Positions 6,757 to 63,476 of a stretch of DNA of 64,000 bases are shown here, one piece after another. This stretch comes from Bacillota bacterium (GTDB taxonomy: Bacteria > Bacillota > Clostridia > Christensenellales > DTU072): assembly GCA_009781445.1 (NCBI GenBank), contig WQYD01000003.1, positions 2,464-66,463 on the forward strand, in the 5' to 3' direction. Below the pieces are notes generated by a model, which was given only the letters and a program-made list of their open reading frames with translations, searched no databases and was not told the origin of the DNA. Positions within the stretch are counted from its first letter, which is position 1, and each line of letters begins with the position of its first letter. The translations under genes and the position numbers were made by a program.

Positions 6757-6867
6757 TAGCTATCACAAAAATCCGATTGCGCTTACCTAAGGGGTTTTTA
6801 TCTACGGAAGCGTAACAATGGGTATAGTTGGAAACGGCTATGCCTCCCGTATTGGAAAGGAAGCAAT

Positions 6868-8886
6868 ATGAAGAAGTTTTTTAAAGTTACCACATTGTTA
6901 TTAGTTCTTGTGTTTGCAGGCACGCTTATTTTAACGGCTTGCAATGACGGAAATCCGAATAGTGCTATAAGCGATGACGATTACACGCTTACTATCAAAG
7001 GCTATTTAGATGACGGCAAAGATCTTGTAATCAAAAAGAGTGTTATCAAAGAGTTTTATGCAGAAAACCCCGATAAGCGCGCACCCGAAGACGGCGAACG
7101 CGTGGCAGGAATCCGCACCCACAAGGTAGACGGAAAGGACGAACTTATCACTTATGAGGTAAGCGGGGTTTATCTTGACGATATTTTGGCACTTTACGGC
7201 GAAAAAACCGCGTCTGACTTTGATGTTATGACGGTTATTTCCTTAGATGACGGCTATGAGAATATTTTAAAGCCCGACATTTTTGATACAACCAAGGGTG
7301 GCGTTAAAATGATTATTGCCCTATTTTATGAGGGTGAAGAATTAACGCAAGAATCCCAATCGGGCGCACTTCGTGCAGTTTTCCCCACAAAGGCTAACAA
7401 CGCTTGGGCAAAGCACCTTTGTGAAATAAGGTTTGGCGAAACCGCCCCTATGCAAGACGCAACCACCACTGCTTACTTTATGGAAACGCTAACGGACTTC
7501 GTGGATACCTTCTCAAAAGGTAACGCTTGGTACAGCGGTGTAAGCATTTCCGCACTTCTTGACGCAGGAATTCTTGCAGATAATGAAGATCTTTATATGT
7601 TCATTACAGGGTTTGACGAAGAAGAAGATTACCTCGTGGTAAAGAATTATCTTAATTACGCAAGCGCATTTTTAACTGATAAAATTTCTTTAACGGGCGA
7701 AAACGGGCAGTATAACGCACTTGCAAAAAGCCCTGTGTTTGACGGCGCGGATTATCTTAACGCATTAAAAATCAGCAACACAGCTTTCTTAACCCTTGGC
7801 AAAACCGCACTTGTTTCTTTTGCACAGCTTGCAGAACGCCACGCAAACGCACAAGGCGATTTAAAAGTTTCAGACATTTTAACCGAACTCAATATGCCTA
7901 AAACAGGCTTAGTTAATTACGAAGTTAAAGATACTAACGGTGAAATGGCGGTGCTTACCGCAGACATTTTCAACTCGGCAACTATTAAATCTGAGGGCGG
8001 TAATTTCGTACTTACCCACGCAAACGGCACGCTTAATATAGCTTCGTTTGTTTGTAAAGAATTTTCATTTTTGTTGGATATTCTTGACGGAAACGGTGAA
8101 TTGCTTCGCACAATAACCACCGCAGATTTAAATAAGCTTAAAGGTACAGTTCTGACGGTAACAAGTGGCGGTGGCGCAGTAACAGAATACCTCGGCTATG
8201 ATTTGGGGCAAGTTTTAACAACTGTTGGCGTGAGAGGCACATTTACAAGCATAACCGTAATAGAAAATGACGGTGGCGAATGGGGCAGAGATATTACCAC
8301 GCTTAACGGCGCGTTTATATCTGTGGGCATTGTAAATGCCAATAACGAACTAACAACGGACGCAAACGGCCCGCGTTATATAGGTGGCTTAAATGTGGGT
8401 GGCAGTAGCACCCGTTCAAGAACGGCTAAAATCCGCTTAGAGGGCTTTGAACCTGCACCCCTACCAATCTATTTTGACGACATTGAGGTTAATATTGAAA
8501 TCGTGCATGACGGAAATTTGCTATTCACTATAAAGAATGAACATTTTGCGGGAATAACCCCAACAGTTCTTATTGCCACCGATAACAACGACCGCCATTA
8601 TTTTTGCTACAGCATTGAGGCAATTTTGGCAAAGGCGAATGTGGACATTAGCGCGCTTGACTTTAACCGCATTGTTGCAAACGGCAAAACCTCACAGGGC
8701 GACCAAAACCAAGATAGGACTTACACCGCTTCGTCTTTGGCAAACACATATATCTCAGTGGCTTTTGGTAGCAATGCTTCAAATATAACCACCGATAGAG
8801 TAAGGTTCTTTATCTATGACCATGAGAAAAACCAAATCGGAACATTCTCACAGTTTACTTACAGGCTTAACCTTGTAACTATTTAA
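6868..8886 (+). CDS. Large extracytoplasmic lipoprotein (hypothetical)
   Basis: Lipobox LILTAC. 672 aa with several internally similar domains. One segment (GALRAVFPTKANNAWAKHLCEIRF) resembles the SUOX-fold Moco-domain C-terminal motif. Confidence 0.55.
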   Translation: MKKFFKVTTLLLVLVFAGTLILTACNDGNPNSAISDDDYTLTIKGYLDDGKDLVIKKSVIKEFYAENPDKRAPEDGERVAGIRTHKVDGKDELITYEVSGVYLDDILALYGEKTASDFDVMTVISLDDGYENILKPDIFDTTKGGVKMIIALFYEGEELTQESQSGALRAVFPTKANNAWAKHLCEIRFGETAPMQDATTTAYFMETLTDFVDTFSKGNAWYSGVSISALLDAGILADNEDLYMFITGFDEEEDYLVVKNYLNYASAFLTDKISLTGENGQYNALAKSPVFDGADYLNALKISNTAFLTLGKTALVSFAQLAERHANAQGDLKVSDILTELNMPKTGLVNYEVKDTNGEMAVLTADIFNSATIKSEGGNFVLTHANGTLNIASFVCKEFSFLLDILDGNGELLRTITTADLNKLKGTVLTVTSGGGAVTEYLGYDLGQVLTTVGVRGTFTSITVIENDGGEWGRDITTLNGAFISVGIVNANNELTTDANGPRYIGGLNVGGSSTRSRTAKIRLEGFEPAPLPIYFDDIEVNIEIVHDGNLLFTIKNEHFAGITPTVLIATDNNDRHYFCYSIEAILAKANVDISALDFNRIVANGKTSQGDQNQDRTYTASSLANTYISVAFGSNASNITTDRVRFFIYDHEKNQIGTFSQFTYRLNLVTI

Positions 8887-8892
8887 GAAGTA

Positions 8893-9747
8893 ATGAAAAA
8901 ACAACGGTTTTTGCAAGCGTTTAGCGCGTATGATTTGATTTTAATCGCGATGCTTACCGCGCTTGCCGTTGCTTTTAAAGTTGTAGTAAAAATGCTTATA
9001 GGACTCATTGCCACACCCCTCGGAATACCGGGGGGTGCTTTGGCAGGCGGATTTTATATGCTTTGGATTCCGCTTACCGTGGCAATAGTGGGAAAGCGCG
9101 GTTCGGCTTTTTTAATGACATTTGTGCAATGCCTTGTGATAATAATCACCGCCATGCCGGGTAGCCACGGTATTTGGACATTTGCCACATACCTGCCACC
9201 TGCTATTTTGGCGGAAGTGGTTATGCTACGCAGAACGCAGGCAAAGCCTGCGAGAGACGAGAGACGAGAGACGAGAGACGAGATAAGGAATGATAACAAT
9301 ATAATTACGAATGACGACTTACGACTTACGAATGATAGAGGTATCAATGAAGATTTCGCAAATCAAAATTCACCACCTCTCGTCTCTCGTCTCTCGTCTC
9401 TCGTCTCTAATCCCTCACAATACACAGTTCTTCACTTCATATTCGCCTGCATTCTTGCAAACCTTGCGGGGACATTCGGAAGTAACCTGCTATTCTTCCG
9501 CCTAGGGTTTGTGCCGTTGTTTTTTGCAATGTCGGCGGGTGCGTTTTCGGGCGCAATGGGCGGTGTGCTTGGGTATTTGGTTTATAAACTTGTGGCAAAA
9601 TCAGGCATTTTTACTGCACACGCAACGCAGTATAAAAATTATAACGAAGAATCGCCAAGTGAATTCTGTGCGCCGAAAGGTGAAACGCCGTGGGAAGAAA
9701 TGAGTCAGCGCACAGCGCATGAAGATATGAAGACGCTACGCTTGTGA
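8893..9747 (+). CDS. Putative ECF-transporter substrate-capture (S) component, carrying an in-frame repeat insertion
   Basis: Polytopic membrane protein (DLILIAMLTALAVAFKVV...) next to ECF A/T genes. Residues encoded by 9253-9408 come from a palindromic element. The C-terminal tail runs into repeat 9705-9958. Confidence 0.45.
   Translation: MKKQRFLQAFSAYDLILIAMLTALAVAFKVVVKMLIGLIATPLGIPGGALAGGFYMLWIPLTVAIVGKRGSAFLMTFVQCLVIIITAMPGSHGIWTFATYLPPAILAEVVMLRRTQAKPARDERRETRDEIRNDNNIITNDDLRLTNDRGINEDFANQNSPPLVSRLSSLVSNPSQYTVLHFIFACILANLAGTFGSNLLFFRLGFVPLFFAMSAGAFSGAMGGVLGYLVYKLVAKSGIFTAHATQYKNYNEESPSEFCAPKGETPWEEMSQRTAHEDMKTLRL
9253..9408. repeat. Family-1 element inserted in frame in a CDS
   Basis: Perfect 30-bp inverted arms, (GAGACGA)x4 at 9253-9282 and (TCGTCTC)x4 at 9379-9408, flank a centre with an ACGACTT array. 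Near-identical copy at 12556-12708. Confidence 0.9.
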
Positions 9748-9958
9748 AGTGCGCCTTTGGCGCGTGAAGACGCTACGCTTGTGAAGACGGCTTCGCCTTA
9801 TTATGGATAATTATATAAACATTCCGCCACGAAAGCAAAGCAACACTTCACAAGTGAACGATAGACGAACGGCTTCACAAGCGTAGCGTCTTCACAAGGC
9901 GAAGCCGTCTTCACTAAACTTCCACCACTATGCCCGTAGCCCAAACACCTATGCCCTA
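9705..9958. repeat. Family-2 element (GTGAAGAC-word type) with GCGCACA and CTATGCC array remnants at its ends
   Basis: Left arm gtgaagacgctacgcttgtgaagacggcttcgcctt is complementary to right arm aaggcgaagccgtcttcacaagcgtagcgtcttcac. The centre is ...cattcc...gcaaagcaaca. Confidence 0.85.
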
Positions 9959-11366: not shown

Positions 11367-11920
11367 AAAAACCGATTTCAAAAAATGCGATAATCGCCAT
11401 AGTTCTTATCTTCGTTCTCGCCGTGGCATTCGGGGTGGGGCTTTATTTGATTCTTGATTTTAATAAGGAATTTAAAGAACTTTACGAAAGCGAAAAAATC
11501 CGCATAATATCCAAAGATTTTGTGAAAGATTTTTCTTTTGACGAACTTAAAGAATTAGCAACGCCCAAAACCTTTACCGCAACTTACAAGCCAAACCAAC
11601 GCTTGCCGATAACGCGTGAGTACACGGGCTTTTGCCTTTTGGATATTTTTTCAGCACTTGATATTGAACTAAGCAAAAGTAAGGGCGTTTCATTCATGCC
11701 GTCTGACGGGCGCGAAACGGTTTATAATATAAACGACATACTAACCCCAAACAATGTGTTTATTGCTTTTAAGTGGGACGGAAAGGCTTTCCCCAAAGGC
11801 AATGCGGGCATTTCGCCGTATCCAGACGAAAACGGCGGGCCTTTTGTGGTTATCCGTGCCAAAGATTTAGTAAGCACGAACAGAGTAAAGTGGCTTGTGC
11901 AAATTGAGGTTTTATTTTAA
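11363..11920 (+). CDS. Membrane-anchored protein with SUOX-fold (Moco-domain-like) module
   Basis: N-terminal TM. The C-terminal GGPFVVIRAKDLVSTNRVKWLVQIEV resembles the G.P.R..vP......VKW...IEV motif of YedY/sulfite-oxidase-type domains. ATGA overlap with the upstream gene. Confidence 0.45.
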   Translation: MKKPISKNAIIAIVLIFVLAVAFGVGLYLILDFNKEFKELYESEKIRIISKDFVKDFSFDELKELATPKTFTATYKPNQRLPITREYTGFCLLDIFSALDIELSKSKGVSFMPSDGRETVYNINDILTPNNVFIAFKWDGKAFPKGNAGISPYPDENGGPFVVIRAKDLVSTNRVKWLVQIEVLF

Positions 11921-13350
11921 TGGAAACCGTGCTTGAAATTAAAAATTTAACCTTATCTTACGGCGAAAGGATTTTGTGTGAAAACCTTAATTTTAGCGTG
12001 AACGCAGGCGAAATTGTGGGGGTAAGGGGCGGTAACGGCACAGGAAAATCCACCCTGATAAAGCGGATTTCCGCACTTATGCCCGCAAATTTAAACAGTG
12101 AAGGCAGTGTGCTTTTGTACGGTGCGGAAACGCTTGATTTAAACATTAAGGATAGGTGTACCGCCATTGCCACGATTTTCCAAGAACCCGAAGCACAGCT
12201 TTTTTCCTCTTTCGTGGAAGACGAACTTTCCTTTGCAAACGAAAACCTGCGTGTTCAGCGTGAAGAGATAAGAAAAAGGATAAACGCCGTTTCAGAACTT
12301 ACGGGCATTAGCCATTTAACTGATAGCAAATCCGAAAAGCTATCAGGCGGTGAAAAACAGCTTGTGGCAATAGCCTCTGCTATTTCTTCTTATCCGCGCG
12401 TAATCCTCGCAGACGAAATCACCGCACGGCTTGATTTAGAAGCCCGCACAAGAATAAGAACCCTCTTAAAAGATTTTGCCAAAGCAGGCGGTGCGGTTAT
12501 ATTCGTTCACCACACGGAAGAAGACGGGGGGGTTTGTGATAGGGTTATTGAAATTAGAGACGAGAGACGAGAGACGAGAGACGAGATAAGGAATAATAAT
12601 ATAATTACGAATGACGACTTACGACTTACGAATGATAGAGGTATCAATAATGATTCTATAAATCAAAACTCACCACCTCTCGTCTCTCGTCTCTCGTCTC
12701 TCGTCTCTAATCCCCAACAAACAATCGTCCTCAACAACCTTTCTTTCTCATACCTCAAAACTAAAGCCCTGATAAGCAATTTAAGCATGAGTTTTGAAAG
12801 CGGTAAGTGCTATCTTATTACAGGCAAAAACGGTGCAGGGAAAACTACTCTCGGCAAACTTATTTTGGGGCTTTTAAAGCCTCAAAGCGGAAGTGTGGAA
12901 ATCGGCGGTGAGTGCGTGGCTAAAATGCGGATAGGCAGTGTGGCAAAGAAGATAGGTTATGTGTTTCAGAACCCTGATTTGCAGTTTTTCACAAATTCCG
13001 TTGGGGAAGAATGTGAGTTTAGTTTTAAACTTACAAGCGCATTAACCGATAGTGTAAAAGAAAGAATCAATGATTGTTTAGTTAAGTTTGGGCTACAAGA
13101 CTTTAGAGAACGGAATCCCTTAACGCTGTCTACAGGCGAAAAGCAAAGGCTTGCCCTTGCCATAACTTCTTTAAGCGGTGTTAGTTTTTTATTGCTTGAC
13201 GAACCCACTTCTTCTCTTGATAATGAAGCTAAAAACTTTGTGGTTGATTATATTAAACGCTTTGTGGCGGACGGTGGTGGCGCGATAATTATCACGCATG
13301 ACAGCACGCTTTTAAGCCACTTGCCAGAGGGGGTAATTTATGAAATTTGA
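11920..13350 (+). CDS. ECF/ABC transporter ATPase, fused duplicated NBDs (EcfA-EcfA'), with in-frame repeat insertion in the linker
   Basis: Two Walker A sites (GGNGTGKST, GKNGAGKTT), two signatures (LSGGEKQ, LSTGEKQ) and Walker B motifs (ILADE, LLLDEP). TAATG overlap with the upstream gene. Confidence 0.85.
   Translation: METVLEIKNLTLSYGERILCENLNFSVNAGEIVGVRGGNGTGKSTLIKRISALMPANLNSEGSVLLYGAETLDLNIKDRCTAIATIFQEPEAQLFSSFVEDELSFANENLRVQREEIRKRINAVSELTGISHLTDSKSEKLSGGEKQLVAIASAISSYPRVILADEITARLDLEARTRIRTLLKDFAKAGGAVIFVHHTEEDGGVCDRVIEIRDERRETRDEIRNNNIITNDDLRLTNDRGINNDSINQNSPPLVSRLSSLVSNPQQTIVLNNLSFSYLKTKALISNLSMSFESGKCYLITGKNGAGKTTLGKLILGLLKPQSGSVEIGGECVAKMRIGSVAKKIGYVFQNPDLQFFTNSVGEECEFSFKLTSALTDSVKERINDCLVKFGLQDFRERNPLTLSTGEKQRLALAITSLSGVSFLLLDEPTSSLDNEAKNFVVDYIKRFVADGGGAIIITHDSTLLSHLPEGVIYEI
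12556..12708. repeat. Family-1 element inserted in frame between the two ATPase domains
   Basis: Same 30-bp GAGACGA/TCGTCTC arms as 9253-9408. It differs by one 3-nt indel and a few central substitutions, and is translated in the same frame. Confidence 0.9.
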
Positions 13351-17030: not shown

Positions 17031-17205
17031 GTATGATGTGCGCCTTTGGCGCATGATGATATGATGACGCTACGCTAATGATGGGCGGGCAAGCCCGCAT
17101 GAACTGATTTAATTTAGCATTCCTTAATGTTGCGAAGCAACACATCATAAGGCGAAGCCGACATCATACCATCATAAGCGAAGCGACATCATAAGCGCAC
17201 GCGCC
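17031..17205. repeat. Family-2 element (ATGATG-word type)
   Basis: Left half has ATGATG words separated by GC-rich mini-palindromes. The conserved centre is gggcgggcaagcccgcatgaactgatttaatttagcattccttaatgttgcgaagcaaca. The right half has CATCAT words. Confidence 0.85.
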
Positions 17206-21663: not shown

Positions 21664-22431
21664 TTAAATTTGAGGATTGGGGCTATTAACCGCCTTGTTC
21701 TTTTTTCCGTAAAACGCTTTCGCCGATGCCACCGCGCCTTTTAAAAGATATTTAAGGAATATCTTTCCAAGTTTGTAAGAAATTATTGCAAGAATTCCAA
21801 GAACCCCTGTGGCAATAAGCAATCCCCCTGCCGTGAATAACGCCCACGGCGTTCCCTCTGTGGCAGAAAGCACCGCCCCTGGGATAACCGCAAGCAGGCA
21901 AGCAAAGGAAGAAACCGCAAGCCCAAGAATCGTACCGCCCACCGCAAACACCGCACTTATAAACAGCACAAAAAACACAATCCCCACAGGAATCAAAATC
22001 GGCGCACTAAAAAGCCTTGCAACCATTGCAATGGTACTGCCTTTTTTAGAGGGTGCAGCTTGCAGGTTGCAGGGTGCAGGGTTGGATTGGTGATTGGTGA
22101 TTGGTGGTTGGTGATTGGTGGCGGAATTATTATTATTAAATAATCCTTCATTCTGAATTCTGAATTCTGAATTCTTAATTAGTCCTTCATTGTGCGCTGT
22201 GCGCTGTGCGCTGTGCATTGAAGAAAGCCTTTCCCCCGCAAGTTCAGCTTGAATTTGACGGCTAATCATTCTTATATCGCCAAGGTTATGCACCACGCGA
22301 TATTCATTTTCGCCTGCCTCAATTTTATCGCTGATAAGTTCGTCATAATAATTTAGCACCCTGTTAAGTTCGTCTGCACTGAACCCTTTTAGGTAAGACG
22401 ATAGTACACTTAAAAATTCATGTTTGTTCAT
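21664..22431 (-). CDS. DUF1700-like membrane protein with repeat-derived linker
   Basis: N-terminus MNKHEFLSVLSSYLKGFSADE...YYDELI is DUF1700-like and the C-terminal half has TM helices. The central ~55 aa are encoded by element 22051-22217. Confidence 0.6.
   Translation of the reverse strand: MNKHEFLSVLSSYLKGFSADELNRVLNYYDELISDKIEAGENEYRVVHNLGDIRMISRQIQAELAGERLSSMHSAQRTAHNEGLIKNSEFRIQNEGLFNNNNSATNHQPPITNHQSNPAPCNLQAAPSKKGSTIAMVARLFSAPILIPVGIVFFVLFISAVFAVGGTILGLAVSSFACLLAVIPGAVLSATEGTPWALFTAGGLLIATGVLGILAIISYKLGKIFLKYLLKGAVASAKAFYGKKNKAVNSPNPQI
22051..22217. repeat. Family-1 module concatenate inside a CDS (non-palindromic)
   Basis: TGCAGGG-type array, GGTGATT array, CTGAATT array, tccttcat junctions, then a (TGTGCGC)x3 array. 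All are read through in frame on the minus strand. Confidence 0.85.
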
Positions 22432-22859: not shown

Positions 22860-23016
22860 CAGCGCACAACGCACAGCGCACAGCGCACAATGAAGGAATC
22901 ATTTATTGATGAGATTTAGATTCCACCATTCGTAAATCGTAAGTCGTAAGTCGTCATTACTCTTAATGAGATTTAGAATCCACCATTGTGCGCTGTGCGC
23001 TGTGCGTTGTGCGCTG
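22860..23016. repeat. Family-1 element with duplicated core
   Basis: (CAGCGCA)x4 - aatgaaggaatc - core 1 (gatgagatttagattccaccatt) - (CGTAAGT)x3 - core 2 (taatgagatttagaatccaccatt) - (GTGCGCT)x4. Confidence 0.9.
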
Positions 23017-23689
23017 TTTTGCGGTTTATGAAATAAACAATAAAAAAGAACCCCGCAAGCAAAGCAAACAGCCCAACATAATATATCGCGTAAAATCCGC
23101 TTATCGCACTTGAGTCAATAATGCCGTTAAAGAGGTTTCCTTCCGCAAGATCCAAAATTACATAACTGCCCTGCGGGTTTATAAGCCACCTCATAAAGAA
23201 TGCGTAGCCCACGGATATGCCCGTGAAAAGAGGGGCTTGCCTTATGTAATGCCTATCAAGTTTGTGGGTAATTAAAAGCGTAAGCCCTGATAGATATAGC
23301 AGTGCGTGATTAAAAGTTGCCATTATAAAAAGGAAAGTTCCGTCATTTTCAAAGAGGTATATTGCTGGGGTGGCAATCCCTGTAAGGAAGTAAAAGAACC
23401 CTGCCACAGGCGCGCAAAACACGGCAAAATTTATTAGCGGTTTTTTATTGGTAAGCACTGCAAGCGAAAAAACAAAATAGCTGATTGCGCTGAATTCAAT
23501 AGGCACTTTGTGGTGAAGCCCCACTATTTGCCAATAAATATATTCAGTAATTTTATATGTTAAGAAAAATATTGCTGAGGAATAAAGCAGAATTTTTGAC
23601 GCTTTTTTGTTATCTTTAAATATGCCGAACACGGCAAGATTTAAGCCTATAAAAATCAGAATTAACAGCAGAGAAAACAGATAAATCAT
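22973..23689 (-). CDS. Polytopic membrane protein (hypothetical)
   Basis: About 7 hydrophobic segments. I prefer the ATG at 23689 (MIYLFSLLL...). The C-terminal [15 protein letters not shown] and the stop lie in repeat 22860-23016. Confidence 0.45.
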   Translation of the reverse strand: MIYLFSLLLILIFIGLNLAVFGIFKDNKKASKILLYSSAIFFLTYKITEYIYWQIVGLHHKVPIEFSAISYFVFSLAVLTNKKPLINFAVFCAPVAGFFYFLTGIATPAIYLFENDGTFLFIMATFNHALLYLSGLTLLITHKLDRHYIRQAPLFTGISVGYAFFMRWLINPQGSYVILDLAEGNLFNGIIDSSAISGFYAIYYVGLFALLAGFFFIVYFINRKTAHNAQRTAHNGGF

Positions 23690-23756
23690 ATGTAATTTTA
23701 TCTTATCACAGTAAAAAAGCCTAAGCAAGCGTGTTTACAAAAAAGGATAAATTCCA

Positions 23757-24065: not shown

Positions 24066-27000
24066 TTATCTACGCGGTGAACGGCTGTAACGGCGTCCTG
24101 CGTGAGTTCTGTCTTTCCGCTTGAAAATCATGCTAAAGAAGAACAGAATGATTAACAGCGCAACACCGCCGATTGCAAACCCAAGAACATAATTCATATA
24201 TTCAGGCATTTCAGGAATCCTTAATCCGCCCACGCTTATGGAACGCACAGGGATATAATTCTCTGAATCAAAGTTCTCGCCTGCAAACAGCACCTCAACC
24301 ACAAACGCTTGGTTCGCGCTTATGCCGTTAAACACATTACTGCTTTGCCCCGGTGCAATTTCATTGCCCTCCAAATCAATCAATCTGTACACAGTGCCTG
24401 CGGGCGCATTGGTTGAAATAACATGGATAGTACCGTCCTCATTTCTTGTTACGCGGATATCAATATTAAATTCTGCCCTGTTTATAGTTAGAATTGCACC
24501 TATGCGGGCAACCTCAAAGCCGTAGTGCATTATAACAGCGGTAACATCGTATTGCCCTGCGTTCACTGGGAATGTGGTAAGCTGAAGCCCGTCCGACATT
24601 CTTATAAAGCTATAGTAAACCGATACGCCCTCTTGGGTAAAGCCTTGCGGTTGCGAACCGAAGTTCACTGCCCCTGGGGATTTCGCATTGCCGTCATACA
24701 CATATTCTGCGTCCCCCACAACTATTGCATTGAACGCATTGGCGGTAATCCTCAATGTGGTTGTTACCGTTTCAAATGTGTAGTTATCCGCCACTATTGA
24801 AAGCACGAATTCGTAATCACCAAGAAGCGTGGGGTTAGCTTCGCTTCCGTCTTTATAATAATTGGTAAACACTGTGATATTCTCAATATCGTTTCCGAAC
24901 AGCCCCAATATATTATATGTTGCTTGCTTAGCCGTACCGCTGTACTTGTGTTCAAGCCCTGCGATTGACGCGGTAAGAATTGCTTTAAAGATTTCAAAGT
25001 GGAACATGGTTTCGCCGTCATAGCTATAGTTTCCGAATTCGTCTTCAAAGCTGATAACCACAATGTATTTGCCTGCACCGCTTGCGTTTTCCACGATTTC
25101 ATAACCGCTTGGCACGCTGATTCCGAATGCGCCCCCGCTTGCGTTTTTGGGTGCGGGATTTCCTGCATTTACATATGTTTCACGCATGAAAATCATATGC
25201 GGAATAACCTTATAATCTTCGTCATACTGCGCAAATAAATTGATATTTGCGTTACCGCCGTTGAAGCTTAATTCGCTAATAAATTCTTCTTTTAGTTCCA
25301 CTTCGCGTGCGTGAATATCAAAGGAATAAGCGTAAACCTCAGTGAGTTCGCTGTTAGGATTTTGAAGCCTTACTTCCACGCTGTAAGTTCCCACATTACG
25401 CACTTGGCTTACTGGAATCTCATTTCCGTTTCTAAAGTACACGAATATTAAATCGCTTGAAATTTCCTCACCGCCGTCAAAAGCGAATGCTTTTAAGGTT
25501 TGCGTAAGCGCGCCGATTCCGTTTTCTTTTGCAGAGAACTGGAATGTTTTTCCGTTAGGCGCGTCCGATTCGTCAAGCACAGCTTCCGCCCTGCTTATCG
25601 TAAATGTTATGCCCGAAACCACGAAGGGGTGAATTGTGTTAGGCGAAGAAACGGTGAACGAAACAACGAAACTTCCTGCGCCCCTAATTTCCTTACCGCC
25701 TAAATCTGCCACGAACGATAAGCCGTGCGCATTGGGCAGGTTGGTTATTACAGGGGTTGTGATTTCGCCGTTGTACACCCTTGTGGCGTTATTGAATAAA
25801 AGTTCGGCTTGCAAGAAGTCCTCTGTGTACATTGCCCTTGCAATCACGAACACCGCGCTTAGCCCTGCGCTTGGCATTTCAAAATTAGAATCGTTTACCA
25901 CAAGGTTAACCACATATTCGCCTGCGTTCACGGGGACTACTTGGGTGCTTAAATCGTCTGAACGGAAGAAGTATTTTTCTAAATCCGCAACGGTGAAGCC
26001 GTTTCCTTGGGCATCTTTAAATAAGAAGGAAGCAATGTAATGCTTGCTTAGCCCGTCATACACCACCGCGTTTCCAGTTGCCTCTGCAAGGCTTAAAGCC
26101 CTTGGCATAACAACGATTTCAAAAGCGGTTTCGCTTAACTCATAATATGCGTTTGCCAAGGTGTTAAGGCTTAAGGTAACCAAGTACGCGCCTGCGTTCT
26201 TAACCGCGCTTGCAACCGCGCCGTTAAGCCTTATATCCTTATCAATAGTAAGGGCAACGCCACTTACAACAGGGAATGCTTGTGTGGAAGCCACCACTTC
26301 AAACTCTTCGCCAGAGTAAACGAACTGCGTGCTTGAAGTAAGTGAGGACTGAACCAAAATCTTGCTTATATAAATAAGGATACTAATATTAGCTGAGGAC
26401 GCGTCAAGCAACACATTACCGCCAACCACATTCACGGTTATGGCGTTTGCACCCACGCTAAGAGGTTGGTTGCTTATGAATCCGCCGAACTGCGTGCTTG
26501 CAATAAAGCTGTTCACAATGAATGCGTTATCAGGGAATAAGGAATTAAGAACTGAGTTAATCTCTTCCGTAATACCGCCTTGGAACGCGCTAAACGATGC
26601 AAGATATTCCACCCTTTCGCTTTCGCCGATTGAGATATCAATGCTAAAGTTTTCCACCGTAAACGGCGCAACATTTAGCGTGATTACATATGTTGCATTG
26701 TAATAAACACTGTTTTCATTGAGGCTTAAAGCGAACAAATCGTTATAGCTGTTCACGGTTAATTCATTAAGATTTACACCGCCGTTTGGTTGAAAGATTA
26801 GCCCCTTACTTGCAAAGTTAGCCTCTGCCCTGTTCACGGCAAATGCTCTGCCAAGTTCGTCAATATCATTTATATCAAGGGTATCCGTGCTAACGCTTTC
26901 CACGGTGTAATCACTTAAGGAATAAAGTTTTGAAAGCTCAATTTCCGCAAGCACATTAGCACGGCGCATTGTAAGCGTTACGGATAAATCCGCCACCTCA

Positions 27001-30000
27001 TAGTTAGAAGCCAAGCCGTTTAACATTGCGTAAGGGTTATTATCAAAATCGTTTTCCTTATTGAAATCAATTCTGAATTCATAGCCCACACCGCTGATAA
27101 ATTGAAGCTGTGTAACCGAAAGCGTGATTAAACCAAGTGCCTCAGAGGGCTTAACGAAATCACTTGCATTAGCATGAAGAACATATGCGGAAGCACTTGA
27201 GAAATCATTTCCGCCTGCTGTGTAATTGATTACCGCACCGCTGTTAACCGCGCCACCGCCAAAGAAGTTTATGGAAACAGGCAGGTTCTTTTTTGTAACC
27301 TCAAACACATATTGGGGAACTGCCGAAGCCACCACATAGTTCACGCTTGCAAAGCCTGCCGAATTGGCTACATATGCAAGGGTGTAAGAATCTGCATTAA
27401 GATATTCGTCATTAAGCGGAACGGAAACACCGAAGCCGTTTCTTAAAGTAAGCCCAAGCCTTATTAGGCGGTTATCCGTTTCACCCACCACAAGCTGTTC
27501 GCCGAACAAATTAAGCGCGTTGATTTCGGCTATCGTCATGCTTTCAAAGTCAAGATCCACCGAACTTGCGCGCATACTTCCGTACTCGTTTTGAAGGTTC
27601 GCAAGCCTGCTTAAGTTAAGCGTGAGTTGCCTCGGGCGGATTTGCACCACAAGCCTATTGCCGTTTGCAAGAAGCAAATAGCTTCCGATTGCCTCAATGT
27701 TATCTATATCATAATTCCTTTGCGCGCTTAAATAATTTATGCTTGCAAAGTAGTCGCCCACATCACCAAGAGTTCCCGCGCCTATTCTCTCAAGATTCAC
27801 TTCCACCGTGCTTCTAACTTCTGCACCAGCGGGAAGGTTCGTAACATTTGCGCCACCGTTAAACACGCTGAAATCATTTAACGCGCCAAGTTCGTCATAG
27901 GTAAGGGCGAATGTTCCGCTGTAATTTATGCTTAGAAGCAAGCGCAGAATCTCAATTGGGAAACTGCCGATATCAAGCGCAAAATTAAAGTTTTGGCTTT
28001 GGTTTGCGCCTGCTTGAAGCGACCAGAAATAGTTGCCTGCGTTCACTGCCTGCACGCCGTTTTCGTCCGAAGCCGTAACGGTAACGCCTGCAAAATACCC
28101 TGCCACATAAGTGCGCAAGTTGCCCTCAACTATATTTCCGTTTAAGTATACTTCATATGAAAGTGCGGTTAAAAGCCTTGTGATTACTGCGCCTGTGTAG
28201 TTCGCGCTGTTAGAGGTTGAACCTATAGCAATGTCTATTGTAATCGCTTCAATTACATATGTTAACACCACATTGCCGAAGCTATAATTGGCTACAGTTT
28301 CGTCACTTAAATTAACCGTGTAAATGCCTGCGTTTCTAAAGCCCACAGCGGTTATATTATCACCCGCGGGATTCTTAAATTGATACGCGCCTTGCAACAC
28401 ATTGTATATACCTGCGCTGTCCTTTGAATTATCCCATGCGGTAACGCCAAGCATTTCATAATCATTAAGCACGATATATCCGCTTGCGTCAAACGCACGG
28501 CTGAATGCTGTTTTGCTGAACGATACAGCGCGCCTTGTGATTGAGAGTGCGCCGTTCACAAACGAAATATTATAGTTATCCGAAGTGAAACCGCCTATGC
28601 TGATTACATATGAATCACCCACCGCACTCTGTTCGTTTGCGCTAAGGATTTGGATATTTAGAGTACCGCCTAAGTCTTGATAAGTGTCCTCACCAAGTAA
28701 CGAATCGCCGATTGAAGTTCTGAAAATTACATTGCTAATGCTTAAAGAAGGATTAGCTTCACCGTACACACGGCTTATGTTTTTGGCTATAACTTGAAGC
28801 GAAGCAGGGGTTATTATTTTTGTTTCTGTAAGCCCCGAAACCGCAAGCTGATAGTTATCATTGCTTGGTGCGTTAAAGCCCGTTACGGTTAATGTGTGCG
28901 TTCCCACATTCCTAAAATCATTTTGTTCTTGCGTAACAAAGGAAACAACTTCGCCGTACGCAGCGGCTAAAGGAAGGGCAACAGGGTTAAATTTTACACC
29001 CGAATAAACCGCCGTTTCAAAACCGCTGAACGAAACGGTAAGAGTGAATTTGGTAACGGTGAGCGTACCGCCCACAAATGCAATATCATAGTTTGGTGAA
29101 GAAACACCGTCCACGATAATCTCATATTCCGCCACATTTAAATGCCCCGTTTCGGCAAGCCTTGCGTTAAGCGTGCCACTTAGAACAGAGGCATTTTCGC
29201 CCTGTGCAAACGGTGAGAATCCATATGAAAAGCTTGGCGTTCCGCCGTAAACCATGGCGATGTTATCTGCCCTTACGGTTAATGCCATGGGGGCAATGTT
29301 CCATGTTACTGAAAGATCAAAAACACTGATTTCATATAGGTTTGTGGTTTCCGCACTTATGGTTGTGGTGTGCGTTCCTGCGTTTCTTGCGCTTGCATTA
29401 ACTAATTGAATTATATCGCCGTTAACGGTTGCACCGCTTATTGAAACAGTCTTATCTTCGTTGCTGTAAATTGCGTTTTGCGGTAGTAGCCAAGTAACAT
29501 TTAGGTTTCGTTTATTTACAGTTATGGTTGAACCTGAAAACAGAATGTCATAATTATCTGAAGTCAGCCCGCTTACCGTAACAGGATATGTGCCGGGTAC
29601 GGAACGCGCGTCAGCCACGGTGGAAATAACTAATTTACTGTTAGTTGCCGTTTCCACAGATTCTATTGTTTGCCCCCCAACCAATCCGCTAACGCTATAT
29701 TGCAGTACGGGGTTAGGATTGCCGTACTGTCTGCTACCGGCAGGATTGGCTTGAATTGATAGGCTTGCCCTGTTGATTACATATGAAATTTCGTCCACGG
29801 AAGGAATTTCGTAATTATTGCGATCCGATAAATCAATAACTTTTGCAGTGTATGTTCCTGCGTTTATTGCACTTCCGCCCGAAACGGTGGTGGTGATTGT
29901 TTCGCCGTTTGCAGGGTTGGTAACAGTGGCGGTAACGCTAACCGGCCCACCGATATAAGTAAGCCCTGTATGCCCGTTCCATTGAAGCCCTACCACGCGT

Positions 30001-32327
30001 TTGGTAATTGTGATTGTGCCTGTGGGGAAAGAGATATCATAGTTGTTAGACGAGAATCCGCTTGGGGTAACCACGCGCTGAGAACCTGCCACGGTGGTTG
30101 TGGTGGCATCGTGTGCATAGCTTATTGAACCGCTGAGGACACTAACCGTTTCGCCGTTCACAAAACCGCTTGCGGTGTAGCCAAGCATGCTTGCATTAAA
30201 ACTGCCGTAATCAGTGGTTACATTGTTTGCCCTTATCGTGAGAGGCGCAGGGAAGATTGACCATGTTTCAGAGGTGTTACCCATAACCACATTGTACCTT
30301 GTGAGGGTGGTTTGGATTATGGAAGCGGTGTAACCCCCTGCGTTCGTTTCGGTGTTTCCCGAAAGCAAAATGCTATCACCGTTCACAAGGTTGGTGCTTG
30401 ACGCGGTAACCGTTTGAGGCACGCCTGTGTAAAGCGCGTAACCATTCCCCGGTTTGTGCCATGTAACGCTTATGCTTCTTCTTTCTATCGTGAGTTGCGC
30501 GTTGGTGGTTGAAATTTCATAGTTGCCCGAAGTGAGGGAATTAACCGTTATTGTGTAAGTCCCCGGTAAATCCGTAACAGTCGCATTTGTGGTTGCGCCG
30601 TGCGTTCCCCAACCGGTGAGAACCGTGCTTGCTTGTTCGCCGTTCACCAGCCCGGTAACCGTTAGGCTTGGGGCAGGGTTGGCGTCACCGTATTGGCGGG
30701 ATTGGTTTCCTGCCACCACTGAAAGCGTTGCCCTTGTTATGTTCCATGCTTGGGAAGAGTTAGAGGGTAACGCATAGTTAGAATTTTGAATAGTTGCCGA
30801 AGCGGTATAGCTTCCCACATTGGTTGCCTTAGTGTTAGCAAAACTTACCACGCTTGCTTGGCTTGCACCAAGTAAGCCCGACACGGTAGGTTCATGCGTT
30901 TGTTCCACACCCGAATAGGGGCGCGAACTGCTTGGCCACGAAAAAACTAAAGGCGCAGGGTTTATGGTGAACGCATAGTTTACCTCACCTATCGTGGTAC
31001 TGCTACCATTCCTCAGCACCGCCCGCAGTCGGTAACTGCCTGCATTTGTGGGGGCGGTAACACCTATGTTCGTGCCTGCCGAATTTTGGTAATACGGCGA
31101 GGTAGACCAAGCTACCCCTGTGGGCAGTCCCCCCCCGCTTGGCAAGGTTACAGTAGGCCCTTGCGCCGAACCGCTGAATGTGTACGAACTACCGCCCGAA
31201 ATTGTAAAAGATACGAAGTTTGCAGTAAGTGTGATTGCCCTGCCGTTATAGCTTACCTCACCTGCAATTGAGGGGGTTAGCGTGGGGCTTGCGTTGCTTA
31301 TATAGGTTGCACCTGTAATGTTTGCAGACCAATCTCTAAAGTAATAGTTAGCGTTAGGGCTTGCGGTGTTTGCAAGCATACCAGTAGTGCCGTTAGACGG
31401 AAGCGTAACGGCAAGGCTTGTTCTTGTAAGAGAACCGCCCGCACCGCCTGCCGCACCGTTAGTGGTGATGCCATAGGTGTGCGTTGAAGCGCTGTAAGTC
31501 CATGTAATTGTAACGCTATTTACAGTTAGATTCGCATAAACCCTCGCCCTGCTTCCGCCTGCTGAACCTGAGTTGCAGGTTGCGTGCTGATAGGATTGGT
31601 ATTCAAGGCGGATACCCGTCATGTTAGTTGCTGCGGCAAAGCTCGCAGTGTTGCTATTTCTTGCGCCGGTATTTGAGCCGGTAAAGGTGGTTGTGCCACG
31701 GCTTGTAACTGTGCCACTTACATTAGAGTATATTTCTGACCAGCCTTCGTATCTGCTCCCGCCACCAGTGCTTCCGCTTATAGAACCGCTCCATATGCCG
31801 TTTGTAACCACAGATATATTGGTAATCTTGCCACTAGATATTGCACGCAAAACATCCCCTGTAAATGTAATGTTATATTGGAATCTGAGCATTGCGTGCG
31901 CCCTTTTATCATTACCTGCGATAACCGCCTTGTAATCTGATTCCATATCCGCTGTCCAACCGCCTCTTACTGTGGAGTTTGACCAGCTTGCACCGGGAGT
32001 CCCGCCGGCATCTATATTCACCACATGGAGTGCGTTGCTACTTGGGGCTGCGTTGGGAATATTTGTGCTTCCGTTGTTGTTACCAGAACGGTTACCCGAA
32101 AGATCATGGTTCATACGGCGGTTATTATGGCTATTATTATTGTTATCCCTGCCGTTCCACCCAGGTAAAGCGGCATCTGCCGATTCAATAACTTCTCTAT
32201 CAAAAATTGCAGGGGCAAGCCGTCCAAGGCTGAACACCCCCATGGTAAATAACAGCGTAAAGCAAATAAACAGCCCTAAGCCAAGCAGTAAATATGCTGA
32301 TAATCTTCTTTTTGTGTTTGTTTTCAT
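24066..32327 (-). CDS. Giant cell-surface repeat protein (MBG-domain-like repeats), 2753 aa
   Basis: N-terminal signal/anchor and an Asn-rich segment. At least a dozen repeats carry YG..NP.L.....G.VNGE...L.G...GTY.I......S.NY.I.F..G.L.I. C-terminal TM (FAIGGVALLIILFFFSMIF) plus a basic tail; AGAGGTGA RBS. Confidence 0.85.
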   Translation of the reverse strand: MKTNTKRRLSAYLLLGLGLFICFTLLFTMGVFSLGRLAPAIFDREVIESADAALPGWNGRDNNNNSHNNRRMNHDLSGNRSGNNNGSTNIPNAAPSSNALHVVNIDAGGTPGASWSNSTVRGGWTADMESDYKAVIAGNDKRAHAMLRFQYNITFTGDVLRAISSGKITNISVVTNGIWSGSISGSTGGGSRYEGWSEIYSNVSGTVTSRGTTTFTGSNTGARNSNTASFAAATNMTGIRLEYQSYQHATCNSGSAGGSRARVYANLTVNSVTITWTYSASTHTYGITTNGAAGGAGGSLTRTSLAVTLPSNGTTGMLANTASPNANYYFRDWSANITGATYISNASPTLTPSIAGEVSYNGRAITLTANFVSFTISGGSSYTFSGSAQGPTVTLPSGGGLPTGVAWSTSPYYQNSAGTNIGVTAPTNAGSYRLRAVLRNGSSTTIGEVNYAFTINPAPLVFSWPSSSRPYSGVEQTHEPTVSGLLGASQASVVSFANTKATNVGSYTASATIQNSNYALPSNSSQAWNITRATLSVVAGNQSRQYGDANPAPSLTVTGLVNGEQASTVLTGWGTHGATTNATVTDLPGTYTITVNSLTSGNYEISTTNAQLTIERRSISVTWHKPGNGYALYTGVPQTVTASSTNLVNGDSILLSGNTETNAGGYTASIIQTTLTRYNVVMGNTSETWSIFPAPLTIRANNVTTDYGSFNASMLGYTASGFVNGETVSVLSGSISYAHDATTTTVAGSQRVVTPSGFSSNNYDISFPTGTITITKRVVGLQWNGHTGLTYIGGPVSVTATVTNPANGETITTTVSGGSAINAGTYTAKVIDLSDRNNYEIPSVDEISYVINRASLSIQANPAGSRQYGNPNPVLQYSVSGLVGGQTIESVETATNSKLVISTVADARSVPGTYPVTVSGLTSDNYDILFSGSTITVNKRNLNVTWLLPQNAIYSNEDKTVSISGATVNGDIIQLVNASARNAGTHTTTISAETTNLYEISVFDLSVTWNIAPMALTVRADNIAMVYGGTPSFSYGFSPFAQGENASVLSGTLNARLAETGHLNVAEYEIIVDGVSSPNYDIAFVGGTLTVTKFTLTVSFSGFETAVYSGVKFNPVALPLAAAYGEVVSFVTQEQNDFRNVGTHTLTVTGFNAPSNDNYQLAVSGLTETKIITPASLQVIAKNISRVYGEANPSLSISNVIFRTSIGDSLLGEDTYQDLGGTLNIQILSANEQSAVGDSYVISIGGFTSDNYNISFVNGALSITRRAVSFSKTAFSRAFDASGYIVLNDYEMLGVTAWDNSKDSAGIYNVLQGAYQFKNPAGDNITAVGFRNAGIYTVNLSDETVANYSFGNVVLTYVIEAITIDIAIGSTSNSANYTGAVITRLLTALSYEVYLNGNIVEGNLRTYVAGYFAGVTVTASDENGVQAVNAGNYFWSLQAGANQSQNFNFALDIGSFPIEILRLLLSINYSGTFALTYDELGALNDFSVFNGGANVTNLPAGAEVRSTVEVNLERIGAGTLGDVGDYFASINYLSAQRNYDIDNIEAIGSYLLLANGNRLVVQIRPRQLTLNLSRLANLQNEYGSMRASSVDLDFESMTIAEINALNLFGEQLVVGETDNRLIRLGLTLRNGFGVSVPLNDEYLNADSYTLAYVANSAGFASVNYVVASAVPQYVFEVTKKNLPVSINFFGGGAVNSGAVINYTAGGNDFSSASAYVLHANASDFVKPSEALGLITLSVTQLQFISGVGYEFRIDFNKENDFDNNPYAMLNGLASNYEVADLSVTLTMRRANVLAEIELSKLYSLSDYTVESVSTDTLDINDIDELGRAFAVNRAEANFASKGLIFQPNGGVNLNELTVNSYNDLFALSLNENSVYYNATYVITLNVAPFTVENFSIDISIGESERVEYLASFSAFQGGITEEINSVLNSLFPDNAFIVNSFIASTQFGGFISNQPLSVGANAITVNVVGGNVLLDASSANISILIYISKILVQSSLTSSTQFVYSGEEFEVVASTQAFPVVSGVALTIDKDIRLNGAVASAVKNAGAYLVTLSLNTLANAYYELSETAFEIVVMPRALSLAEATGNAVVYDGLSKHYIASFLFKDAQGNGFTVADLEKYFFRSDDLSTQVVPVNAGEYVVNLVVNDSNFEMPSAGLSAVFVIARAMYTEDFLQAELLFNNATRVYNGEITTPVITNLPNAHGLSFVADLGGKEIRGAGSFVVSFTVSSPNTIHPFVVSGITFTISRAEAVLDESDAPNGKTFQFSAKENGIGALTQTLKAFAFDGGEEISSDLIFVYFRNGNEIPVSQVRNVGTYSVEVRLQNPNSELTEVYAYSFDIHAREVELKEEFISELSFNGGNANINLFAQYDEDYKVIPHMIFMRETYVNAGNPAPKNASGGAFGISVPSGYEIVENASGAGKYIVVISFEDEFGNYSYDGETMFHFEIFKAILTASIAGLEHKYSGTAKQATYNILGLFGNDIENITVFTNYYKDGSEANPTLLGDYEFVLSIVADNYTFETVTTTLRITANAFNAIVVGDAEYVYDGNAKSPGAVNFGSQPQGFTQEGVSVYYSFIRMSDGLQLTTFPVNAGQYDVTAVIMHYGFEVARIGAILTINRAEFNIDIRVTRNEDGTIHVISTNAPAGTVYRLIDLEGNEIAPGQSSNVFNGISANQAFVVEVLFAGENFDSENYIPVRSISVGGLRIPEMPEYMNYVLGFAIGGVALLIILFFFSMIFKRKDRTHAGRRYSRSPRR

Positions 32328-32341
32328 AGTTCACCTCTTTT

Positions 32342-35940: not shown

Positions 35941-36099
35941 TATGAATTATGGAATTTTTTATTAAGAATTTATCTTAATTAGATTTAGAATCCACCATTC
36001 GTAAATCGTAAGTCGTAAGTCGTCATTACTCTTAATGAGATTTAGATTCCACCATTGTGCGCTGTGCGCTGTGCGCTGTGCGCTGTGCGCTGTGCGCTG
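35941..36099. repeat. Family-1 element (one-armed; duplicated core)
   Basis: Degenerate AAGAATT part - core - (CGTAAGT)x3 - core - (TGTGCGC)x6. The inner part is nearly identical to 22905-23016. Confidence 0.9.
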
Positions 36100-59986: not shown

Positions 59987-60232
59987 TAACAGAACCCCGC
60001 AGGGGTGAAATGTGCATAACCCCATGCAAGCGGTAGCGAAGCTTGGGGTAAGGCAAAGGAATGTGGGTAGCAACACAAAACCCACCTTTCTGCCATTGGC
60101 AGAAAGGTGGGTTTTGTTTGTGTAGGTTAGCTTGCCGTACCGTCCTTAGCCACGGGTTTCACCCATGGTTATCCAAATTCTGCCCGCTTGGGGGCAGTTA
60201 CGGATTTTTCCATAATTTGTACTTCATAATTC
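59987..60232. repeat. Family-3 hairpin-cluster repeat (includes a bidirectional terminator)
   Basis: Shares ggtgggttttgtttgtgt[a/g]ggttagcttgc.gt.ccgt...ccacgggtttcaccc.tggttat...ctgccc..gggcag with 43434-43560. Extra left part has gcaggggtgaaatgtgcataacc. Confidence 0.8.
60081..60120. terminator. Bidirectional rho-independent terminator between convergent genes
   Basis: 14-bp stem cccacctttctgcc / ggcagaaaggtggg with a 3-nt loop, an A-run before it and TTTTGTTTG after it. Confidence 0.7.
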
Positions 60233-63317: not shown

Positions 63318-63476
63318 AGGCCATAGGCCATAGGGCATAGGCCATAGTAATTGAATTTTCTAATTCAGAATTGTGGATTAAATAATAAATTGAATTTTCT
63401 AATTCAGAATTGTGGATTAAATAATAATGAGATTTAGAATCCACCCCTATGCCCTATGCCCTATAACCTATGCCCT
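63318..63476. repeat. Family-1 element with GGCATAG/CTATGCC arms and a 39-bp internal tandem duplication
   Basis: aggccataggccatagggcataggccatag ... 2 x (aattgaattttctaattcagaattgtggattaaataata) ... tgagatttagaatccacc - cctatgccctatgccctataacctatgccct. Confidence 0.9.

Follow-up and report, generated by a model that had tools for sequence, protein, structure and literature searches.

Palindromic repeats that persist in frame inside genes are already established (PMC10969869, PMC3184786). Rickettsia palindromic elements (RPE), as described by Ogata et al. (2000) and relayed by the same two sources, are palindromes of about 150 bp with many copies per genome, a substantial share of which lie in frame in unrelated genes, where an element-specific peptide is accommodated in loops or at the surface and the host protein is not destroyed. 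Here we describe a 156-nt palindromic block, copy A, that lies in frame within the gene for the S component of an energy-coupling factor (ECF) transporter in an uncultured Bacillota metagenome-assembled genome (MAG), GCA_009781445.1; the window analysed is a 64,000-nt stretch of its contig WQYD01000003.1. The initial annotation, made from the letters of the window, had compared this block to RPE that survive in frame in proteins, and that reading gains support from the alignment of homologues, the confinement of the peptide, the loop site of the insert and the existence of further in-frame copies. We consider it likely that the block is a genome-specific, non-autonomous palindromic repeat with heptamer arms, which is translated with its host gene and tolerated there with no function needed.

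In-frame palindromic repeats being a known kind, we liken the element to RPE by analogy of behaviour, not of sequence, and make no family assignment. With RPE it shares the form of a dispersed palindrome of roughly 100-150 bp (156 and 153 nt here, with perfect 31-nt arms), a conserved peptide encoded in frame in unrelated genes (the S component, an EcfA fusion, protein P0067 and, twice, protein P0073), and a loop or surface site that fits the host fold (a loop with a low predicted local distance difference test score, or pLDDT, in an AlphaFold2 model whose fold is still like that of 5EDL). It differs from RPE in that its host is not one of the Rickettsiales, in that its arms are stop-free heptamer arrays coding for the same cyclic peptide in three frames, in its mosaic and nested architecture with interchangeable arrays, and in that one copy here, possibly two, appears to fuse adjacent genes.

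Three other groups of repeats invite comparison. [quoted passage not shown] Copy A has terminal inverted repeats of this sort in its 31-nt perfect arms; in contrast to MITEs, however, its ends are simple-sequence arrays rather than a unique terminal inverted repeat, it lacks a target-site duplication, and no cognate insertion sequence (IS) or transposase was seen in the window. Repetitive extragenic palindromic (REP) sequences are imperfect palindromes of 20-40 nt with GTAG/CGTC tags, mobilised by RAYT proteins and extragenic by definition (PMC3116915, PMC3733652). Together with their bacterial interspersed mosaic elements (BIMEs) and REPINs, they resemble the repeats of the window in being dense in intergenic DNA, often at gene 3' ends, in forming hairpins, and in being mosaics of palindromic units in alternating orientation without target-site duplication (PMC3116915, PMC3733652). 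The stems of the family described here are instead heptamer arrays of 28-44 nt, and the element itself, at 156 nt, is intragenic and has tandem-array arms, with no Y1/RAYT gene in the window.

Heptameric simple-sequence repeats (SSRs), such as the cyanobacterial short tandemly repeated repetitive (STRR) sequences, the GGGAATC repeats of Xanthomonas and the TAACTGA repeats of Beggiatoaceae, are likewise tandem 7-nt units with about four units preferred, sometimes arranged as inverted pairs, and are over-represented in many bacterial genomes (PMC4692102, PMC4679880). Copy A contains at least three tandem units per array and so qualifies as a repeat of this long simple-sequence repeat (LSSR)/STRR type. 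The described heptameric repeats differ in being intergenic and depleted in coding DNA, and they are not described as the arms of a palindrome with a conserved core or as in-frame protein inserts (PMC4692102, PMC4679880). A literature search, itself of incomplete coverage, returned no paper on heptamer-armed mosaic palindromes or on their in-frame insertion.

Copy A within the S-component gene

The 156-nt block lies in phase 0 of the open reading frame (ORF) 8893..9747, as the initial annotation had it, and is read there as the peptide RDERRETRDEIRNDNN...SPPLVSRLSSLVS. Its inverted repeat had been given as perfect and 30 bp long; the perfection and the heptamer composition of the arms stand, and the length is corrected to 31 nt (9253-9283 and 9378-9408, 100% complementary and 94 nt apart). 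Tandem Repeats Finder detected the two arms and a third array in the centre (TTACGAC/ACGACTT, at 9305-9331), with 4.7, 3.9 and 4.6 units at 100, 85 and 100% matches from left to right. This centre array had been described as complementary to a CGTAAGT array seen between genes, and it does match, in reverse complement, two TCGTAAG arrays (22930-22954 and 35999-36023), the inner module of copy A being the reversed CCACCAT+(TCGTAAG)n module of the intergenic copies. A 14-mer, GAGACGAGAGACGA, occurs 12 times in the window compared with no occurrence in 100 shuffles. The short right flank, common to copies A and B (Table 1), is probably still part of the element, the ends of which are fuzzy.

Only one of the six reading frames of copy A is open, and it is the one used by the host gene. 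That the other two forward frames are closed had been noted from the start, and they do reach a stop within 10-12 codons; stops are present in all three reverse frames as well. Because 7 equals 1 modulo 3, a stop-free heptamer codes for the same cyclic 7-aa peptide in three frames, and the arms are therefore frame-neutral, such that read-through of a copy depends on the centre of about 90 nt alone. Tryptic peptides of the element's predicted translation include NDNNIITNDDLR and GINEDFANQNSPPLVSR. At the RNA level, copy A is predicted to fold into one long hairpin (-69.5 kcal/mol, z = -7.3), and the corresponding hairpin of copy B has a predicted energy of -71.1 kcal/mol. Searching the element against Rfam produced no family at gathering score and only spurious sub-threshold matches to plant-miRNA-like hairpins, and a promoter and terminator scan found no terminator-like site at copy A or copy B.

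The host had been labelled as ECF S-component-like, and independent searches bear this out. The ORF scores 32.6 bits against PF09819 (ABC_cobalt; gathering cut-off 25.2) with a match that ends at residue 112, the downstream genes include two ABC_tran domains and a CbiQ, and a Foldseek search with an AlphaFold2 model built from the homologue alignment returned the ECF S component 5EDL as its top PDB match (prob 1.0), followed by ThiT. Among the database matches of the protein, 65 of 67 fall in the S-component family, its own entry P0001 included; only P0066 and P0067 were matched through the insert peptide, and the remaining family hits matched the conserved flanks alone. The inserted segment is missing from all 29 aligned homologues (38-56% identity), whose consensus ...VFLxxxKxGYNILHF... 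runs unbroken over the insertion point. On either side of the insert, the window protein retains every one of the 22 columns that are invariant in the family.

The AlphaFold2 model has a mean pLDDT of 80.5, with a helical core above 90 and residues ~116-178 at 48-70. The insert corresponds to residues ~121-172, flanked by a helix at 95-115 and a helix at 179-202, which places it in the loop between the fourth and fifth transmembrane helices (TM4 and TM5); its sole predicted helix is short and lies within the charged RDERRETRDEIRN part. S components have an established N-in, six-helix topology. From this topology, the positive-inside rule and the RRTQAK at the end of TM4, the TM4-TM5 loop bearing the insert would be cytoplasmic.

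Two checks proposed in the initial annotation, an alignment of orthologues and a structure prediction, came out in favour of an insertion, with a lineage-specific segment (carried by 0 of the 29 homologues) that falls in a low-confidence loop between two TM helices. It had also been proposed there that distant orthologues with a homologous peptide at the same site would mark the segment as native; these were looked for and none was found, and the reading survives. The segment is absent from all aligned homologues, and both a native ancestral loop and an assembly artefact, for which nothing was found to speak, can be regarded as effectively refuted. The peptide is confined to proteins of this MAG, or of this MAG and a close relative, unrelated genes contain DNA that is near-identical, and an ENA assembly contig of a different size (k141_2755410, 53.9 kb) is the same as the window over 4,855 nt across copy A, with no difference. 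The S-component protein is also encoded on a 79.7 kb NCBI MAG contig.

Further in-frame copies and the ecfA1-ecfA2 boundary

Four further in-frame copies accompany copy A. Copy B (Table 1) has arms identical to those of copy A and a centre about 90% identical, with 8 differences and one 3-nt indel, and again a single frame of the six is open, the one read by ORF 11920..13350. Copy C lies in the DNA encoding P0067, a 329-aa membrane protein of this MAG (accessions MCL2630030.1 and MCL2631151.1) that carries the peptide in its N-terminal tail. Two more copies are found in P0073, a double ECF ATPase (704 aa) that comes from this MAG or one closely related to it and the inserts of which were read as peptide only: the first, at residues ~25-78, lies in the first ABC domain, in its N-terminal part and just ahead of residue 85, where the Pfam ABC_tran match starts, and the second, at residues ~640-692, is at the C-terminus. 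The tally is three DNA copies (A, B and C) and two peptide copies, i.e., five in-frame copies in four proteins, every one in the single open frame. The sites they occupy are tolerant ones: a loop predicted to be cytoplasmic, a gene boundary, protein tails and a position just upstream of an ABC_tran core.

When the 54-aa peptide was compared exhaustively (phmmer) with 1.84 billion representative proteins, only P0066, P0067 and P0001 were retrieved. All three carriers belong to this MAG (NCBI accessions were checked for two), and a word-indexed search later gave P0073 as a fourth carrier. The peptide is thus not a protein domain of wider distribution. Most substitutions between copies are non-synonymous (E/N, F/S, A/I, one deleted D), and the sequences therefore show no sign of selection on the peptide.

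We propose that a copy of the repeat entered the S-component gene in the sole stop-free orientation and frame of the six, at a structurally tolerant point in the TM4-TM5 loop. The insert would then be transcribed and translated with the gene as about 52 hydrophilic and largely disordered residues, charged at first and then Ser/Leu-rich, and would persist because it does no serious harm. With the centre of the GAGACGA subfamily open in one frame, copies placed in that frame at tolerant sites may survive, and copies in any other frame would cut the host protein short and be lost. A pair of insertions in one operon could alternatively mark the operon as dispensable and on its way to becoming a set of pseudogenes, the open frame being a transient accident. 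We find such decay very hard to credit, as every ORF of the operon is intact, the invariant residues of the S component and both ABC motif sets are preserved, copies A, B and C have diverged in their centres without a stop or frameshift (the sole indel is 3 nt), and 5 of 5 copies, spread over four proteins, use the single open frame.

Both ABC_tran domains of the ORF containing copy B match at 2.4e-58 (Pfam), and both ABC motif sets are kept. Two relatives have the same operon order, namely the locus with the closest S component (L123, with P0002) and a second locus (L161, with P0004), and both have separate ATPase genes of ~215 aa each, with stop and start overlapping as ATGA. The end of the first ATPase in the window (..CDRVIEI) aligns with ..CTRFIDL* of L123, and the residues after copy B (QQTIVLNNLSFSY) align with MKIKITNLTFSY; the window and L123 share 56% amino-acid identity, at which synonymous sites are saturated. 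In the window ORF, the overlapping stop and start are gone, and there is no in-frame ATG, GTG or TTG downstream of copy B.

Because copy B sits exactly at the ATGA overlap of the two syntenic relatives, it is most likely that its insertion erased the overlap and joined ecfA1 to ecfA2. The sister copy would have hit the overlap, removed both signals and made one polypeptide of the two. Against this direction of events, fused double ATPases are common across the wider YkoD-type family, which raises the possibility of an ancestral fusion. A native linker would then be expected, and none is present, which counts against an ancestral fusion. P0073 carries a different mosaic module (..IQNSEFRIQNEGNIDNNSTPMPYALCPMP.., AATTCAG/CCCTATG) exactly between its two ABC domains, and this position hints at a second element-made ecfA1-ecfA2 fusion. 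If true, ecfA1-ecfA2 would be a concrete case of a repeat making a gene fusion by erasing an overlapping stop and start.

Table 1. Features of the window and of related loci; coordinates are window positions unless a locus is named.
Feature	Location	Strand	Description
Host gene, ECF S component (PF09819, YkoE-like), 284 aa	8893..9747	+	Pfam, homologues, AlphaFold2 model
Left arm, copy A	9251..9283	+	CGAGAGA/GAGACGA heptamers x4.7 (Tandem Repeats Finder); codes RDERRETRDE
Centre, copy A	9284..9376	+	junction GATAAGGAAT, then inner TTACGAC module, then degenerate AATGA..TTC..AAATC..CACC motif
Right arm, copy A	9377..9408	+	CTCTCGT/TCGTCTC x4.6 (Tandem Repeats Finder), perfect complement of left arm; codes LVSRLSSLVS
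Right flank, copy A	9409..9420	+	AATCCCTCACAA; counterpart in copy B is AATCCCCAACAA
EcfA1-EcfA2 fusion ORF, 476 aa	11920..13350	+	copy B is the whole linker but for at most ~4 residues
Copy B, 153 nt	12556..12708	+	arms as copy A; same frame, same peptide; boundary of two ABC domains
Copy C	L122:2372-2526		DNA encoding P0067 insert; 3 centre differences from copy B, arms identical
Molybdenum/tungsten cofactor (Moco) riboswitch	6762..6876	+	Rfam RF01055, 57.7 bits; heads operon with copies A and B
HAAS/DUF1700 linker arrays	22050..22216	-	four heptamer arrays, ATGAAGGA junctions, translated within ORF 21664..22431
Typical intergenic member	22860..23017	.	(CAGCGCA)n - ATGAAGGAAT - inner TCGTAAG module - AATGAGATTTAGAATCCACCAT - (TGTGCGC)n; no open frame
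(GAGACGA)n in-frame insert loci	L014, L016, L017, L033, L110; L004		Fibrobacter MAGs; Pirellulales (L004)

The heptamer-array mosaic family of the window

The window holds about 20 heptamer-array regions, about 12 of which are intergenic palindromes. The intergenic plan is (CAGCGCA)n - ATGAAGGA(A/T)T - optional inner arrays - TAATAATGAGATTTAGAATCCACCAT - (TGTGCGC)n, and AATTCAG, GTTTCTC, TCGTAAG, GATTGGT and CCCTATG are found as alternative heptamers in the arm or inner arrays. Copy A retains the junction, the degenerate right-hand motif and, in reverse, the TCGTAAG module, and its arms differ from those of the intergenic family. From these shared parts, we read the GAGACGA element as a diverged, coding-compatible member of the mosaic family. 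Other members are also found within genes: a HAAS/DUF1700 membrane protein, which belongs to a PadR-HAAS-DUF4097 module, has arrays in its linker (Table 1), and its orthologue P0069 from a related organism has a different heptamer-coded linker in the same place, while further in-frame array modules occur in a GH31 glycosidase (L164:4209-4339) and in MscL (L163), in the C-terminal region. Of the perfect arrays in the window, 16 are 21 nt or longer, with 7 lying within three genes, 2 overlapping an ORF end and 7 intergenic; about 87% of the window is coding.

The full intergenic palindromes have no open frame among the six (11 of 11 cases), whereas in copy A, in copy B and in the HAAS arrays a single frame is open, that of the host. 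The pairing of genic copies that have one open frame, and have it in use, with intergenic copies that have none would be a clean natural illustration of a selective filter. The same contrast bears on the possible post-transcriptional or post-translational removal of the segment (an intron-like hairpin, a peptide resembling an intein, or translational bypassing), for which a length divisible by 3 and a long hairpin joining both ends would be suitable. An element that is spliced out or bypassed needs no open frame, yet all of the copies use the sole open one, and the intergenic relatives have none. In addition, no Rfam intron family matched, Pfam detected no intein domain, 52 aa is far under intein size, and copy B differs in length by 3 nt. 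With every known copy in the only open frame, the insert is expected to be translated rather than removed; intein, intron and bypass were rejected on this ground, and we see removal as an even slighter prospect than gene decay.

A number of observations weigh against the reading of the block as a tolerated passenger. Across copies A, B and C, 0 of 62 arm columns vary compared with 10 of 91 centre columns (P about 7e-4), and invariant arms beside a varying centre are not predicted by simple neutral decay; possible causes are selection on the hairpin, self-homogenisation of the arrays or hairpins, or arms that are made anew with each move. Of the five in-frame copies, four are in ECF-transporter proteins, for which chance is perhaps not the cause, and three came from protein searches, which are blind to out-of-frame copies. 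No intergenic copy of the GAGACGA subfamily was found in ~94 kb of the genome, and no further copy of the element was found in public genome contigs (among the loci listed, at least 120) or in metagenome contigs, where a scan for arm plus junction gave 34 loci, none of which is a copy. No target-site duplication was found, the flanks of A, B and C being without a common direct repeat (only AAT(C) is common at the right, and ATT/TTT at the left of B and C), and a Pfam scan of ~55 window ORFs detected no transposase or RAYT, nor was there any known-IS terminal signature. As a result, we infer mobility from distribution only.

The arm conservation in particular could be taken to mean that the element is kept for a function, either as an mRNA hairpin in the riboswitch operon (an RNase III site, a translational pause that fixes the ratio of subunits, or a stabiliser) or as a contingency switch, in which the gain or loss of one 7-nt unit would shift the frame by +1 into the stop-rich centre frames and toggle the S component or the ATPase. 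In every copy the arms keep the same sequence and pair perfectly as the centre drifts, the hairpins of copies A and B are very stable (energies given above), two copies lie within one operon, the other two forward frames of copy A close early, and heptameric repeats are known to be slippage-prone (PMC4692102, PMC4679880). On the other hand, arms of only ~4.5 units are short for slippage to be efficient, the copy number is equal in two assemblies, the mostly non-synonymous changes of the centre give no sign of peptide selection, the same family crowds intergenic DNA as selfish or REP-like repeats do, and tandem arrays and hairpins can self-homogenise without selection. On balance we think such a retained function unlikely, though less so than gene decay, and retain the tolerated, translated repeat as the preferred explanation.

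The operon into which copies A and B are inserted begins with a Moco riboswitch and continues after the S component with an alkaline-phosphatase-like protein, a small Oxidored_molyb-like protein, the double ABC ATPase, CbiQ/EcfT and MobB. The operon also encodes Oxidored_molyb-like lipoproteins, and it probably specifies a Moco-related ECF uptake system that has yet to be characterised. A second repeat family, with units of 17-25 nt (GAAGACGCTACGCTTGTGAAG..., CATCATAAGGCGAAGCCGA...), is present at 9728-9914 and 17143-17193; it forms a 38-nt imperfect palindrome (9752-9789 and 9870-9907) directly after the S-component gene, and its first unit provides the last ~7 codons (..DMKTLRL*) of the S-component ORF.

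Elsewhere in the window, the C-terminus of a TMEM164-like protein (ORF 22973..23728, minus strand) extends into the TGTGCGC arm of an intergenic palindrome, with 22973-23017 forming a repeat-made extension of the 3' end of the gene. A perfect tandem duplication of 39 nt x2 (AATTGAATTTTCTAATTCAGAATTGTGGATTAAATAATA) is found at 63349-63427 within a TAGGCCA/CCCTATG-armed palindrome, and inner modules can evidently duplicate as units. The largest ORF of the window (24066-32330, minus strand, 2,755 aa) is without heptamer arrays. Between two array clusters, at 59990-60200, lies a GC-richer and structured-looking intergenic stretch (..CCGCAGGGGTGAAATGTGCATAACCCC..GGTGGGTTTTGTTTG..) with no Rfam match at gathering score.

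Wider distribution and significance

The array (GAGACGA)3.3 is present at a minimum of 120 loci of other phyla in public genome contigs, the source MAG not being among those listed, e.g., in Fibrobacter, Gemmatimonadota, Planctomycetota, Rikenellaceae and Sorangium. Among the matches listed, several Fibrobacter loci show palindromic array pairs, and 51 of 135 arrays are inside long open frames. The genes interrupted in frame, as identified by Pfam, are those for MnmE (two inserts), CobA-HemD, HrpA, LysE, a GT4 glycosyltransferase and a class I tRNA synthetase (loci in Table 1). Several of the Fibrobacter and Pirellulales inserts have a repeat of the 'GTCATCCTGAGC...' type adjoining the array.

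Our analysis adds to the initial annotation the twin copy B, a probable element-made fusion, the contrast in open frames between genic and intergenic copies, and the reading of the element as an offshoot of a mosaic family. A bolder generalisation, which we offer tentatively and consider doubtful, is that heptamer-array mosaic palindromes are an undescribed class of bacterial repeats pre-adapted to genes, with at least eight sites in seven proteins here, supplying linkers and fusing the ecfA genes, in one case with good support and in a second possibly. The in-frame (GAGACGA)n arrays in housekeeping genes of Fibrobacter and other phyla, such as those for MnmE, CobA-HemD and HrpA, would belong to the same picture. 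Pre-adaptation would follow because a stop-free array codes for the same peptide in all frames, such that only a short core must be open. Slippage of an array by one unit would, if it occurs, make the host genes phase-variable as well.

The in-frame survival of selfish palindromes has been viewed largely as a Rickettsia curiosity. A case in a free-living gut-type Firmicute, with a different architecture, suggests a more general route to protein loops and linkers, and the heptamer arms connect protein evolution, and possibly phase variation, with the surplus of 7-nt repeats in bacteria, itself poorly understood.

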